A stretch of 64,000 bases of DNA, taken from the IMG/VR virus record IMGVR_UViG_3300045988_122518; one strand, written 5' to 3'. The notes beneath the pieces are model-generated. The model was not told the origin of the DNA and did no database searches. It saw only the letters and a list, made by a program, of their open reading frames with translations. Of the stretch, positions 3,172-43,261 are shown piece after piece. Both the position numbers and the translations under genes were made by a program. How positions within the stretch are numbered: the stretch's first letter is position 1; each line of letters starts with the position of its first letter. The DNA is from a virus.

Positions 3172-3768
3172 ATGCCTAATGCTTTAGATATTACTGGTCA
3201 AAGATTTGGAAGATTAGTTGCTCTTAAAAAAGCACCAAGTCGTAATGGAAGTACTTATTGGTTATGTCAATGTGATTGTGGAAATTAGAAAGAAATAAAA
3301 ACCGGCAATTTAACAAGAGGAGCTACAAAGTCGTGTGGATGTATTTGTAATACTACAGGAAAAGTTAAAGAAAAATATTGTTTAAATTGCGGTAAAGAAT
3401 TACATAAAGGATAGTATAAATATTGTTCTAACGCTTGTTAGTAGGAATATAAAAGAAAAGAATATATTGAAAAAGTTGCTAATGGAGAAGAAAGTGGTTT
3501 AAAGAAAAGTGGAAATGCTACTAAAATTTCTGATTCTATTAGAACTTATCTTTTCAAAAAATATAATAATAAATGTTAGAAGTGTGGTTGGGGAGAAATT
3601 AATCCAACAACTGGGAAATGTCCTTTAGAGATTCATCATAAAGATGGCGATAGAACTCACAATGATTTGAATAATTTAGAATTATTGTGTCCTAATTGTC
3701 ATTCTTTGACTCCCAATTATAAGTATCTAAATAGTCAAAGATTTAAAAATAAGACTGAAGAGATATAA
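3172..3768 (+). CDS. HNH homing-endonuclease-like protein with zinc-ribbon repeats (4 in-frame TAG codons)
   Basis: Hand translation gives YWLCQCDCGN-TAG-KEIK...SCGC zinc ribbons, then an HNH motif (IHHKDGDRTHNDLNNLELLCPNCH); two TAG codons are adjacent; TAA stop at 3766-3768. Confidence 0.6.
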
Positions 3769-3775
3769 ATGGTAT

Positions 3776-3851
3776 GGGGGTATGGCCAAATCGGTAAGGC
3801 TCTCAACTTATAATTGAGGAATTGATGGTTCGATCCCATCTACCCCTACCA
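3776..3851 (+). tRNA. tRNA-Ile (anticodon UAU)
   Basis: Acceptor GGGGGTA/TACCCCT, anticodon stem CTCAA/TTGAG with loop CTTATAA, T arm GATGG-TTCGATC-CCATC, CCA encoded. Confidence 0.65.
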
Positions 3852-3892
3852 TTGTTATGGTATTTCCTTTCTTAACTAAATAAAGACTCATA

Positions 3893-3952
3893 CAGCAACT
3901 TTTTTGCTTGCAATAAGCGCTTAATGTGGGATTAAGAAGAATAAAGAGTCTT
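3893..3952 (+). ncRNA. small structured RNA, member of the AAAGACT..ACAGCAA family
   Basis: Shares the conserved 5' motif TAAAGACTCATACAGCAAC and the 3' element AGAGTCTTGTAG, which can pair with it; central hairpin CTTAAT-GTGGGA-TTAAG. Confidence 0.35.
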
Positions 3953-3964
3953 GTAGATAAATTT

Positions 3965-4042
3965 ACGGCTATCGCCTAATTGAATATGGCACCAGCCTTC
4001 TAAGCTGTCATAATCTGGGTTTAAGTCCCAGTAGCCGTACCA
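3965..4042 (+). tRNA. tRNA-Arg (anticodon UCU)
   Basis: Acceptor ACGGCTA/TAGCCGT (perfect), anticodon loop CTTCTAA, T arm CTGGG-TTTAAGT-CCCAG, CCA encoded. Confidence 0.7.
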
Positions 4043-4106
4043 ATCGAGGGTATATTTCATTAATAAGAATCATTGAAACCTTAAAAATATTAAGGAAGGT
4101 GATTTG

Positions 4107-40389: not shown

Positions 40390-40787
40390 TTGATAATGAA
40401 GCTGTAAGTCAAGCTAAAACTGATACATATGAAATTAGAGAACGAATTCCTATCGCTCTTTGGGATAAAGTAAGTGAAGATCTAACACGAGATCAATGCT
40501 ATTCTTATTGGCAATATTGCCTTGAATGTGTCCAGCAGATGGCTGACGCTTGGGAAGAAGTTAATGGTGAAAATCTTATTTGGGTTCCGGGCCATTATGA
40601 AAAAAAAGAAGAATCCAAGAGTGAAGATGTTCCAATTACTGAAGTAGTTAAAAAATGTGAGTGTTATCATTTAAGAGATGATAAAACCGCAGAATGTTGG
40701 GGCACTAAGGAACGCGAAATCTGTTCCTGTGGTGGCGATTCAAGATTTTGTAATTTTTATCATACCGGAGATAGAATTAGTGGTTAA
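40386..40787 (+). CDS. hypothetical Cys-rich protein
   Basis: Track ORF. Confidence 0.4.
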   Translation: MIDNEAVSQAKTDTYEIRERIPIALWDKVSEDLTRDQCYSYWQYCLECVQQMADAWEEVNGENLIWVPGHYEKKEESKSEDVPITEVVKKCECYHLRDDKTAECWGTKEREICSCGGDSRFCNFYHTGDRISG

Positions 40788-41277
40788 ACAAATTACTTAT
40801 TATAAAAATAAAAGCCTATTAGACTTACCTCCTAATATTGTAATTTGTCATCAAGTGAATTGTCAAGGCGTTATGGGCGCGGGTCTTGCCAAACAAATTC
40901 GTATTCGTTGGCCTGAAGTCTATATAGATTATAAAAAAACTATTGAAAACGCGGAAACGCAAGTCGCAGGATTAGAAAATCCACCTGATGACATTTTACT
41001 TGGTGCGGTTGCTTGCACTACTACCGTAGATGGTCATAGAGTAGCAAGTTTATTCGCCCAATATGATTACGGGTATGGCCCGCGCAGATATACTAATTAT
41101 GAAGCATTTGCTAGTTGTTTAGAAAATTTAAATAAATTAGTTCCGGGCTATGTTCCGATTGCTTTTCCTTATAAAATTGGGTGTGGTCTTGGTGGAGGAG
41201 ACTGGGATATTATTCAATTAATGATTAGAAAAATTCTCCATCACGAAGATGTTTATATCTGTCAGTTGGAGGATTGA
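40780..41277 (+). CDS. macro-domain protein (ADP-ribose binding/hydrolase)
   Basis: NIVICHQVNCQGVMGAGLAKQI matches the macro core (VNAAN...GGGV..AI); GTG start at 40780 overlaps the previous stop (alternative upstream start at 40678). Confidence 0.55.
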   Translation: MVKQITYYKNKSLLDLPPNIVICHQVNCQGVMGAGLAKQIRIRWPEVYIDYKKTIENAETQVAGLENPPDDILLGAVACTTTVDGHRVASLFAQYDYGYGPRRYTNYEAFASCLENLNKLVPGYVPIAFPYKIGCGLGGGDWDIIQLMIRKILHHEDVYICQLED

Positions 41278-41278
41278 A

Positions 41279-41785
41279 ATGAGCGTTGTCGCTGCTAAAG
41301 TTTATGATGATAGAATTGTAATGAGTGCTGATAGTATTCTTACTAATGGCTATGAAAAGGAACCTAATGTTAATTTTGCTAAGATTGCTAAGATTAACGA
41401 CATAATTCTTGGCGGAGTTGGTTATGGTGATGAACAAAGTCTAATGTGGCTTTATATGGAGAATCATCAGCCAGTTGAAGCTAATGAACGAGAAATTCTT
41501 AATTACATTATTGAATTTTCAAAATGGAAAAATACTCTTATTGGTGATGGATTTCTAAGAAATGAATTTCTTATTGCCTATAAAGGACATCTTTTCCATA
41601 TTTGTAAGTTTATGGTAAGAGAGATTAAAGATTATTTTGCTATTGGAGCGGGCGCTCCTTATGCAACAACCGCATTATACTTGAAGCATGATCCAGAAGA
41701 GTCAGTAAAGGTTGCATGCGATATTTGTTGTTTTGTAAGCGAGCCAATTAAAACTTTTATTCAAGAAAAAGGAGATAAGGAGTAA
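41279..41785 (+). CDS. HslV/proteasome-like Ntn-hydrolase peptidase
   Basis: N-terminal S-VVAAKVYDDRIVMSADS and AIGAGAPYATTA resemble HslV TTIV...ADS and GSGG.YA.AAA motifs; GGAGG ribosome-binding site before ATG 41279. Confidence 0.4.
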   Translation: MSVVAAKVYDDRIVMSADSILTNGYEKEPNVNFAKIAKINDIILGGVGYGDEQSLMWLYMENHQPVEANEREILNYIIEFSKWKNTLIGDGFLRNEFLIAYKGHLFHICKFMVREIKDYFAIGAGAPYATTALYLKHDPEESVKVACDICCFVSEPIKTFIQEKGDKE

Positions 41786-41857
41786 TTCTTATCTCCTTTT
41801 TGATTTTTTTAAAAAATTATTATATAATATTTATATAAAAAGAAAGGTGATATTATT

Positions 41858-42085
41858 ATGAATTATATTGTTTCTAAAGAAAGACTTCTTGAGCTTCTTA
41901 AAGCTGAAAATGAGCTTAATGTTCTTGAAGGGGATGGTGTTGATAACTGGACATGGTATATGGAAGGCCGAAGACAGTATCTTAAAGAAGGCGCTGAAAT
42001 GTATGGTGTCAATATTGATGACAATGAAGATTTTGATTTTGAAGATTTAGCTGAATTAGATCTTCAAAACTTTGAGGAAATTTAA
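41858..42085 (+). CDS. hypothetical acidic protein
   Basis: Behind a promoter/UTR cassette. Confidence 0.35.
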   Translation: MNYIVSKERLLELLKAENELNVLEGDGVDNWTWYMEGRRQYLKEGAEMYGVNIDDNEDFDFEDLAELDLQNFEEI

Positions 42086-42529
42086 ATGATTAATAAATTT
42101 GAAGGAGATTTTGCTTTTTTAAGCAACTTTTTTTACTCTCCAATTACAATAGAAGGAAAAAGATATCTCACGGTAGAAAACTATTTCCAGGCAATGAAAG
42201 CAGCGAACCCCGGCGAGGCAGAAGAAATTAGGCTGGCTCCTACTCCTGGCAAATCCAAGAGATTAGGAAGACATTGCGTAATTCGTAAAGATTGGGAAGA
42301 CATTAAAGAAGATATTATGTATAAAGGCGTAAAAGCTAAATTTATGCAAAACCCAACCTTGCGGACTGCCCTTGAAAAAACCGGAGAAGCTTGGCTTGAA
42401 GAAGGAAACACTTGGTGCGATAATACTTGGGGAGTCTGTCATTGTATTAAGTGTCAAGACAAAATGGCATATAACAAATTAGGGAAAATTTTAATGAAGG
42501 TGAGAAAAGAATTAAGGGAATCAGATTAA
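42086..42529 (+). CDS. NADAR-domain protein (YbiA-like ADP-ribosyl glycohydrolase)
   Basis: GDFAFLSNFFYSPI...YLTVENYFQAMKA signature of the NADAR/DUF1768 family. Confidence 0.6.
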   Translation: MINKFEGDFAFLSNFFYSPITIEGKRYLTVENYFQAMKAANPGEAEEIRLAPTPGKSKRLGRHCVIRKDWEDIKEDIMYKGVKAKFMQNPTLRTALEKTGEAWLEEGNTWCDNTWGVCHCIKCQDKMAYNKLGKILMKVRKELRESD

Positions 42530-43261
42530 AAACTGATCCCCTAATAATTCTTCAATTTTGATAGTATCTCTTTTATAATAAGGAATTCTTACTAAAGGGA
42601 TATTATTATTTTTTGCATAATTATTTTTTAATTCATCTCTTGTTTGGACTTCTTTTAATAAATCTGTTTTATTAAAATACTCAACTGTTTTAGTGTGTTG
42701 TGGACCATCAAATTCAATTAAACGAATAACATTATTTTCTTTATCAAGTATAGCAAAATCAAATCTTAAAAAACCGTTGTTTTGAGTTTTTAAGCTCTAA
42801 TTTGTATATTGAGAAATATAATTTATGTTATTATCAGTTAATAATTTGTTAATATTTAACTCCCCAATAGAATTTTTACATCCACAAGATTTTTGACCTC
42901 TTGATATTAACTTACCTCTTTCTACAGTAATAATATTACCACAAGAACATTGACAATCATACATAGTTGTAGCTTTATGCCCATTAATTTGAGCTTCTTT
43001 GTTTCTACGAATTACGTATAACTCTCCAAATGTTTTTCCTGTTAAATCTTGTAGATGAGCTTTGCTTAATAATTCAGATTTCATACAACCGCAAGATTTA
43101 ATAATGCCTCTATTAATATCAGTAGTTGTTGCTGTAAACATTTTACCACATTTACATTGACAATTCCACCAAACATTTTTACCTTTTTTTTCAATATTTC
43201 GATTTATAACTTTAAAATTTTCACATTGTTTATTTGTTAAATCAATTTTCAAATAAACCAC
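42521..43261 (-). CDS. homing-endonuclease-like protein (zinc ribbons + DUF559/Vsr-like), only minus-strand gene (1 in-frame TAG)
   Basis: The track ORF ends at a TAG; translated onward it gives FLRFDFAILDKENNVIRLIEFDGPQH...IPLVRIPYYKRD, paralogous to 36552 and 29918; stop TGA (complement of 42521-42523). Confidence 0.5.

Follow-up and report, generated by a model that had tools for sequence, protein, structure and literature searches.

A 64,000-nucleotide (nt) stretch of viral DNA (IMG/VR record IMGVR_UViG_3300045988_122518; the window, meaning this whole stretch) carries five genes, here called g3172, g5238, g29901, g36552, and g42521, that are best explained as free-standing homing endonuclease genes (HEGs) in a human-gut phage in which TAG has been recoded. 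We put the probability of this explanation, including homing and the immunity and recoding proposed below for g36552, at about 0.8. Homing endonuclease genes are abundant in large phages. All five genes were found as free-standing cassettes, present or absent at exact sites in relatives that are 91 to 100% identical; the combination differs genome by genome, and the five genes assort independently.

A preliminary description of the window had read these genes as mobile selfish genes with a modular repeat and two nuclease modules, a view supported by the predicted nuclease fold, the repeat joined to two nuclease types, and the site-exact polymorphism. Relatives were recovered for comparison (labelled L001 and so on); among the close ones are contigs from human-gut metagenomes (the label on the L001 record is human gut) and viral genomes of IMG/VR, ~160 to 197 kb in size, and no close cultured relative was returned by megablast of 22 kb against cultured phages. 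The g42521 cassette (~42517 to 43335) is an insertion of ~0.8 kb between the stop codon of a NADAR gene and the ribosome-binding site of the next gene; it is present in 4 of 12 IMG/VR close relatives and absent from the other 8, is missing with an exact junction from L001 (95% identical), and stands at the same site in L002 (~75% identical), in agreement with the earlier suggestion that this minus-strand gene was inserted independently. L014 (98% identical) lacks g36552, as do 7 of 11 close relatives, and g29901 is present in 3 of 12, with a 54% identical copy at the same site in a further relative. Both g3172 and g5238 are placed between genes of the tRNA cluster. The former occurs in 2 of 10 relatives, and its variable segment (3076 to 3843) is just 153 bp long in relatives without the gene; the latter is a clean 710-bp indel, found in 0 of 10 IMG/VR relatives and absent also from L010 and L011. 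At the left end of the g5238 cassette (5146 to 5185) lies a truncated 5′ portion of a tRNA (acceptor, D-arm, and anticodon-like stem-loop, without T-arm) that resembles the start of the L010 tRNA-Ile(GAT).

Another paralogue, with the repeat and the Vsr-like nuclease described below, is carried by L001, L026, L034, and L067 between a 119-amino-acid (aa) gene and an RNA ligase gene (12342 to 13097 in L001). The first 300 bp of the RNA ligase gene (38835 to 39134 in the window) are 58 to 68% identical between L001 and the window, compared with 92 to 100% on either side. A diverged tract beside a free-standing HEG is the co-conversion or target-divergence signature known from the T4 seg and mob genes. 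Apart from the endonuclease genes, L001, at 95% identity, lacks a two-gene cassette (26239 to 28282; a 203-aa protein of unknown function and a 392-aa Eco57I-like N6-adenine methyltransferase) that may be a restriction-modification or orphan-methylase island.

The window has a GC content of 33.5%, nearly all of its genes on the plus strand, and 15 to 17 tRNA genes. Under the standard code, none of the four plus-strand genes (0/4) is open, and the minus-strand gene is open for a 154-aa piece only; each of the five contains one to six in-frame stops, every one of them TAG. When TAG is read through, all five genes open and dozens of open reading frames (ORFs) in the window lengthen. A suppressor tRNA with anticodon CTA is encoded (Table 1), and TAG aligns with true Gln codons in window paralogues (CqCECG versus CQCDCG and FDGEqH versus FDGRQH). 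TAG positions were kept in 43 of 60 comparisons with relatives, and where they were replaced, CAA or CAG was the commonest substitute (9 of 17). Because the frames open on read-through, a tRNA(CTA) is encoded, and TAG aligns and exchanges with Gln codons, we read TAG as a sense codon in this phage, most likely for Gln. At 90 nt, the tRNA(CTA) of the window has a long extra arm, and it also shows G73 and a U1:U72 mismatch; Ser was considered as the meaning of TAG from the extra arm and G73, and the codon comparisons favour Gln. Two tRNA(CTA) genes of ordinary length (73 and 71 nt, at 13540 to 13612 and 13846 to 13916) occur in L010 (93% identical), in a part of that genome to which the window does not align.

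The five genes had also been described as extremely AT-rich and TAG-dense. Both properties are real: GC content is 25 to 30% (33.5% for the window), and TAG density is ~1.65 per 100 codons, about five times that of the other ORFs (~0.34). The density is a product of stop-codon reassignment and not of decay. In the window, TAG is densest in the endonuclease genes, an endolysin gene (lysozyme plus amidase; 53098 to 54399; 8 in-frame TAG), and a gene for a repeat-rich 497-aa protein (8933 to 10426; 7 in-frame TAG).

A Cys-rich motif, (F/Y)G.L.V...W.C.C.CG...SCG(C/K), was found in seven copies and in four of the genes only: g3172 has one copy, and g29901, g36552, and g42521 have two apiece. All 21 pairs of copies scored above shuffled controls (z 4.8 to 27.8), and BLASTP matches of g3172 to the three other genes were confined to the repeat (E 1e-14 to 1e-5). 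No copy was found in g5238, whose marginal match to g3172 spans the HNH core alone (E 0.011). The preliminary claim that all five genes share tandem ribbons is thus narrowed to four genes with the repeat, three of which have it in tandem. A second domain, RFDF..IEFDG.QH..PLVRIPY, is present in exactly three genes, g29901, g36552, and g42521, which are full-length paralogues (36 to 41% identical; E 1e-44 to 1e-58). The ribbon and nuclease similarities reported earlier therefore survive alignment statistics. One gene start needed correction: position 29918 is out of frame, and the real gene is g29901. The HNH assignment held for both remaining genes, g3172 by Pfam (21.7 bits; cut-off, 21.4) and g5238 by PHROGs (phrog_2255, E 2.8e-28), the Pfam score of the latter (17.8 bits) lying under the cut-off. 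Both show CxxC...HH...N...CxxCH, and g5238 is laid out as an N-terminal HNH domain, a CxxC..CxxC ribbon, and a C-terminal helix-turn-helix (HTH)-like tail. Judged by these alignments, four of the five genes form one family by the shared repeat and g5238 is an unrelated HNH gene; the same repeat appears joined to two nuclease types, HNH in g3172 and Vsr-like in the three paralogues.

Structures were predicted for P0001, a 98% identical stand-in for the window nuclease protein, and for repeats taken from a stop-free window fragment. In the AlphaFold2 model of P0001 (predicted local distance difference test score [pLDDT], 86.9), the C-terminal nuclease domain folds like Vsr and the homing endonuclease I-Bth0305I, as a Vsr-like variant of the restriction-endonuclease fold. 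Six residues (E142, D176, E191, D193, H197, and D220) are invariant across 69 homologues. The active sites of Vsr (D51/F62/H64/H69/D97) and I-Bth0305I (E170/D196/N208/H213/D222) are known (PMC3239194), and the invariant acidic and His residues appear to parallel them in spacing and may be their counterparts. Of the preliminary label "DUF559/Vsr-like", the Vsr-like part agrees with the fold predicted for the domain that three genes share. For the window proteins, the Pfam scan listed no NUMOD family and, at E ≤ 1, no match to DUF559; its closest model for the nuclease was DUF2726 (PF10881), to which some homologues have a precomputed hit. NCBIfam gave weak HNH-type matches only (IscB and ZorE), far under their cut-offs. 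Window proteins matched PHROG families 374, 559, 9084, and 7140, annotated as HNH, homing, or intron-encoded endonucleases (E 1e-13 to 1e-38).

The repeat itself matched no Pfam or NCBIfam model. Modelled alone (pLDDT 78.5), it forms a small beta-barrel plus a helix with five conserved Cys residues, so that the "zinc-ribbon" label given to it earlier is better replaced by that of a predicted SH3/Tudor-like small barrel of ~55 aa with a Cys cluster and without a solved homologue; it is presumed to be a DNA-binding module. Database relatives numbered 4081 and 3263 in two family counts, and tblastn found relatives in 365 cultured-phage records, mostly with Firmicutes hosts, annotated as "hypothetical", "HNH endonuclease", or "regulator". 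Lactococcus phage AM5_113 (L013, 859 to 1959) has the same Vsr-like nuclease domain with four copies of a different, C..C...CPKC-type zinc-ribbon repeat, in a gene located in the nrd cluster between nrdG and other nrd genes. Homing endonuclease genes are often located in nrd clusters. In Bacillus phage WH1, gp055 carries three repeats but lacks a nuclease, and such repeat-only proteins are annotated as regulators. As AM5_113 and WH1 gp055 combine the modules differently, these modules are shuffled in nature.

The g36552 cassette differs from an empty allele by more than a gene. Wherever a g36552-type gene was examined in relatives, even where the endonuclease is only 48 to 71% identical to g36552, a metallophosphoesterase gene lies directly downstream of it. 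Empty alleles begin ATG..ATT AAA AAG TTC TTT TTG ACT GGC GAT ACT CAT GG, coding M..IKKFFLTGDTHG (the L014/L024 type includes TTTTTGACTGGCGATACTCATGG), and the cassette allele reads GTG ATA AAA CAT TAT TTT ATC ACA GGT TAG C GAT ACT CAT GG. Relative to empty alleles, 4 nt are thus inserted, giving GGT-TAG-C and splitting the GDxHG codons (37364 to 37370). In cassette alleles a short frame-1 ORF codes the normal N terminus as far as Gly and then meets TAG, and the remaining 225 to 270 codons lie in the +1 frame.

GGT-TAG-C was present at all cassette-bearing loci: the window, L001, L002-9, L015-22, L023, L025, L029, L032, L044, L162, L164, L165, L167, L170, L171, L185, L195, and L199. Thirty HEG-less loci lack the insertion and have a single-frame M..(I/L)..GDxHG start. 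Footprints also exist: three HEG-less loci (L174, L179, and L182) keep the insertion, with site, hairpin, and intact ORF retained, as does L184 (IMGVR_UViG_3300031867_001805), which has an endonuclease remnant. In L184, ~300 nt upstream of GGTTAGC, a remnant of the phosphoesterase N terminus (LKNWLITGD) is followed by the C-terminal end of the endonuclease (..LVRIPY..) and then by an intact short ORF, TAG, and the +1-frame gene; this decayed cassette suggests that the insertion originally took place immediately behind the GD codons.

In no case does the frame-1 ORF lack a Shine-Dalgarno sequence or a start codon, and its conserved peptide equals the normal N-terminal beta-strand. In the window, the last codons of the endonuclease gene (...KGDDES) contain or overlap these initiation signals, and the GTG overlaps the TGA stop of that gene. 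Several lineages offer no start codon in the +1 frame, or interrupt that frame with a stop two codons upstream. The phosphoesterase ORF is unbroken in every site-bearing allele (15 or more, and diverse) and is under purifying selection: the ratio of nonsynonymous to synonymous substitution rates (dN/dS) among site-bearing alleles is 0.04 for the window versus its close relative L025 and 0.09 to 0.37 for deeper pairs, values that partly reflect evolution in the uninserted state because a cassette that homes enters genes already resident.

A hairpin formed by the entire short ORF ends 1 to 3 nt before GGT (37340 to 37362 in the window, with a 9-bp stem), its 5′ arm being made by extra N-terminal codons. 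Stems vary in a compensatory manner between lineages (GTCACAT/ATGTGAC, GTCACGA/TCGTGAC, GTGATAAAA/TTTTATCAC, and ATGAACAAG/CTTGTTCAT). Each sequence was folded individually and compared with shuffles and with uninserted alleles; mean folding free energy was −10.1 kcal/mol for inserted and −3.2 kcal/mol for uninserted alleles, with complete separation (U = 0; P = 8e-6, uncorrected for phylogeny). The hairpin is specific to inserted alleles. RNAalifold returned no consensus structure for the recoding region because the stems are in different registers.

From these observations we propose that the enzymes would cut the empty allele during co-infection and that the cassettes would then be copied in by recombinational repair, with endonuclease synthesis tied to the phage suppressor tRNA through the in-frame TAG codons. 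Gene g36552 probably targets the metallophosphoesterase gene beside it, at the conserved 5′ end that codes for GDxHG. Its cassette would supply its own copy of that 5′ end, with the 4-nt insertion and the upstream hairpin; the insertion would break the recognition site and so confer immunity from self-cleavage, and ribosomes could restore the frame at the slowly decoded UAG, either by a +1 shift (yielding G-S-D-x-H-G) or by a 4-nt hop (yielding G-D-x-H-G). Programmed forward recoding at GGU-UAG-C is probably the most economical reading of the comparative sequences. We consider the odds evenly balanced for the larger proposition, that the g36552-type gene, the GGU-UAG-C insertion, and the hairpin form one mobile cassette in which the insertion splits the recognition site and ribosomes recode at the UAG, as a second, independent, and mechanistically distinct case after T4 mobA/gene 60.

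Several points weigh against the overall explanation. A classical +1 slip would need re-pairing from GGU to GUU, which is poor, and a matched landing codon is missing; in L019 and L044, an ATG or GTG of the +1 frame coincides with the site, and termination-reinitiation is possible there; g42521 lacks a diverged flank; and a patchy distribution can also be obtained by repeated loss. The lack of phylogenetic correction in the hairpin test and the carry-over in dN/dS, both mentioned above, count on the same side. The nuclease had no sequence-level match to solved structures (PDB sequences searched with the full protein and with full-length and nuclease-only profiles, E ≤ 10; neither 3r3p nor Vsr was found), the three Vsr-type proteins score 19.3, 19.9, and 22.2 bits with Pfam DUF2726 (PF10881), under its cut-off of 24.7, and the placement near the EDxHD class of homing endonucleases comes solely from modelled fold and residue spacing.

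Part of this material can be read otherwise. The nucleases might be kept for phage benefit (exclusion of competitors, host DNA degradation, or gene regulation), with patchiness produced by frequent loss and accessory-gene flux. The existence of repeat-only proteins annotated as regulators, such as WH1 gp055, would fit such a role, as would the undiverged surroundings of g42521; each cassette, however, is one gene with exact junctions, placed between genes or at a gene start, assortment is independent among near-identical genomes, flanks with diverged, co-conversion-like tracts occur, the nearest structural relative is a proven homing endonuclease, and the g36552 type stays tied to one target gene despite the divergence of its endonucleases. 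We regard phage benefit as improbable on this balance. That the five ORFs are decayed pseudogenes, their motif likeness due to chance or low complexity, would account for the in-frame stops seen under the standard code, but those stops are all TAG, conserved or swapped with CAA/CAG, in a genome that encodes a suppressor tRNA; full-length homologues number in the thousands, and the repeats score above shuffles. The read-through frames, repeat z-scores, and TAG/Gln exchange refute decay, to which we attach next to no probability.

The 4-nt insertion, for its part, might not be bypassed at all: the phosphoesterase could be made by termination at TAG and re-initiation in the +1 frame, or the gene could be inactivated. 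The sequences at the site in L019 (ATG-GTT-AGC) and L044 (GTG-GTT-AGC), TTG four codons upstream in L002 and L015, a normal paralogue in L194 that starts M..AVSDIHG with the same nucleotides in frame, and the weak re-pairing of GGU with GUU all speak for this possibility. It fits poorly with the clade of the window, whose +1 frame has no canonical start, and with the SHIYVTG lineages, which have TGA two codons upstream of AGC. Against it, too, the sole Shine-Dalgarno sequence and start codon serve frame 1, the frame-1 peptide is conserved as the normal beta-strand, the hairpin is built by extra codons in inserted alleles only, and the ORFs are intact, at dN/dS 0.04 to 0.37. We therefore consider a site without bypass rather unlikely, and keep programmed recoding as the preferred reading.

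Table 1. Coordinates of the endonuclease genes, their modules, and associated features in the window
Feature	Position	Strand	Remarks
g3172	3172–3768	+	198 aa, 5 in-frame TAG; free-standing HNH endonuclease gene
g3172, single Cys-rich repeat	aa 5–58 (nt 3184–3345)	+	
g3172, second finger	aa 69–90	+	CxxC...CxxxC, treble-clef-like, unrelated to the repeat
g3172, HNH core	aa 134–178 (nt 3571–3705)	+	
g5238	5238–5840	+	200 aa, 6 in-frame TAG; cassette 5142–5851
Suppressor tRNA, anticodon CTA	7663–7752	+	Presumably needed for translating TAG-containing endonuclease genes
g29901	29901–30644	+	247 aa; between DUF2828 gene and major-vault-protein (MVP)-like gene
g29901, repeat cores	30018–30095 and 30222–30308	+	
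g29901, Vsr-like nuclease core	30411–30476	+	
g36552 cassette	36472–37369	+	Leader, endonuclease gene, and replacement 5′ end for downstream phosphoesterase gene; replaces 21 nt of empty allele
g36552	36552–37343	+	263 aa
g36552, repeat cores	36648–36725 and 36879–36956	+	
g36552, Vsr-like nuclease core	37074–37142	+	
Putative recoding signal	37340–37370	+	GTG start overlapping endonuclease stop, hairpin, GGT-TAG-C
Metallophosphoesterase ORF, +1 frame (SDTHGR...)	37368–38120	+	250 codons plus stop
g42521	42521–43261	−	246 aa; only convincing minus-strand gene of the window
g42521, repeat cores	43085–43162 and 42878–42955	−	
g42521, Vsr-like nuclease core	42695–42763	−	

Further features were recorded in the window. 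A tRNA-mimic element (5046 to 5135) has its parts in permuted order (T-arm, acceptor stem closed by a loop, and D-arm, enclosed by an "anticodon" stem); a permuted tRNA gene was considered here, and the element was re-read as a YrlA-like tRNA mimic, with a sub-threshold match to Rfam YrlA (Y RNA-like; 5052 to 5118, 22.8 bits, E 0.059). A promoter-like TTGACA-17-TATAAT lies by it (~4974 to 5003), and L010 (~11870 to 11955) has the same tRNA-mimic architecture in a different sequence, with complementary acceptor arms. The anticodon loop of tRNA-Pro(TGG) (6298 to 6460) is interrupted by an element of ~84 nt (~6335 to 6418) that itself scores as a tRNA (Rfam, 35.1 bits) with an aberrant anticodon region; this insert is single-copy in the window and absent from L010, L153, L158, and L161. 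A DUF2828/DUF7788 protein and a major-vault-protein-like protein are encoded at 28244 to 33259. At 62704 to 63717, a 337-aa protein (4 in-frame TAG) has a C-terminal GIY-YIG domain (Pfam E 5.5e-9), a hydrophobic, possibly membrane-spanning N-terminal segment, and a long charged, possibly coiled-coil region, which is atypical for a homing endonuclease. A RAGATH-33 RNA match (23975 to 24103; 123.3 bits) is just over the Rfam gathering score of 120.4.

The endonuclease family as such is already represented in PHROG clusters. What appears to be new is the uncharacterised shared repeat, the reliance on a reassigned stop codon, and the endonuclease-linked 4-nt recoding site. The Cys-rich repeat, which phage proteins contain by the thousand and which is combined with two or more nuclease types, is apparently a modular DNA-recognition unit. 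The TAG-dense endonuclease genes would link expression of selfish elements to the phage's own code switch, and the g36552 lineage is strictly linked to a UAG-containing 4-nt insertion with a dedicated hairpin, in a gene kept under purifying selection. If programmed recoding is correct, the principle of mobA/gene 60 would be generalised, a mobile nuclease bringing with it a translational "patch" that both immunises and preserves its target, and the recoding signal would be very short and easily testable. The UAG recoding site could be a temporal switch too, because UAG decoding changes during infection in recoded phages.

Among known systems, the three Vsr-type genes resemble EDxHD/Vsr-like homing endonucleases (I-Bth0305I of Bacillus phage 0305phi8-36 and T-even Hef) in having an N-terminal DNA-binding region (presumed here) and a C-terminal nuclease, in the apparently similar spacing of invariant acidic and His residues, and in being phage-borne, free-standing genes. 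Unlike I-Bth0305I, they carry Cys-rich repeats at the N terminus instead of its NUMOD-2/HTH repeats; unlike the EDxHD enzymes generally, they lie outside introns and inteins and contain reassigned TAG codons, and sequence similarity to those enzymes is undetectable. Because neither sequence homology nor NUMOD modules were found, we file them as a structurally related variant of the EDxHD enzymes, not as members. The PHROG families matched (374, 559, 9084, and 7140) are computational clusters, and the AM5_113 protein is set apart from the window genes by its four-fold C..C...CPKC-type repeat. Like the free-standing HNH HEGs of large phages (the T4 Mob family, I-HmuI-like enzymes, and zinc-ribbon HNH enzymes), g3172 and g5238 have an HNH core with CxxC pairs, are intergenic in a tRNA cluster, and are polymorphic among relatives; T4 segB likewise lies within a tRNA cluster. 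They differ from those genes in that g3172 uses the Cys-rich repeat of the Vsr-type paralogues and g5238 has a different C-terminal ribbon and HTH.

The closest parallel to the g36552 cassette is T4 mobA/gene 60, in which a UAG follows the take-off Gly codon, a 5′ stem-loop is present, and the insert protects against MobA (bioRxiv 10.1101/2022.08.31.505936). The two differ in that the gap here is 4 nt as against a 50-nt bypass element, that a matched landing codon is lacking (GAT is preceded by AGC and not by a Gly codon), that no take-off stem-loop holds the Gly codon, that the nuclease is Vsr-like (MobA is HNH) and the target a metallophosphoesterase (in T4, a topoisomerase), and that the UAG here is a reassigned codon. 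In both, an endonuclease gene is accompanied by an insertion into a conserved portion of its neighbour, placed after a Gly codon and beginning with UAG (GGT-TAG is invariant in g36552-type loci), a 5′ stem-loop accompanies the site, footprints outlast loss of the endonuclease, and the insertion is proposed to guard against self-cleavage without loss of the protein.

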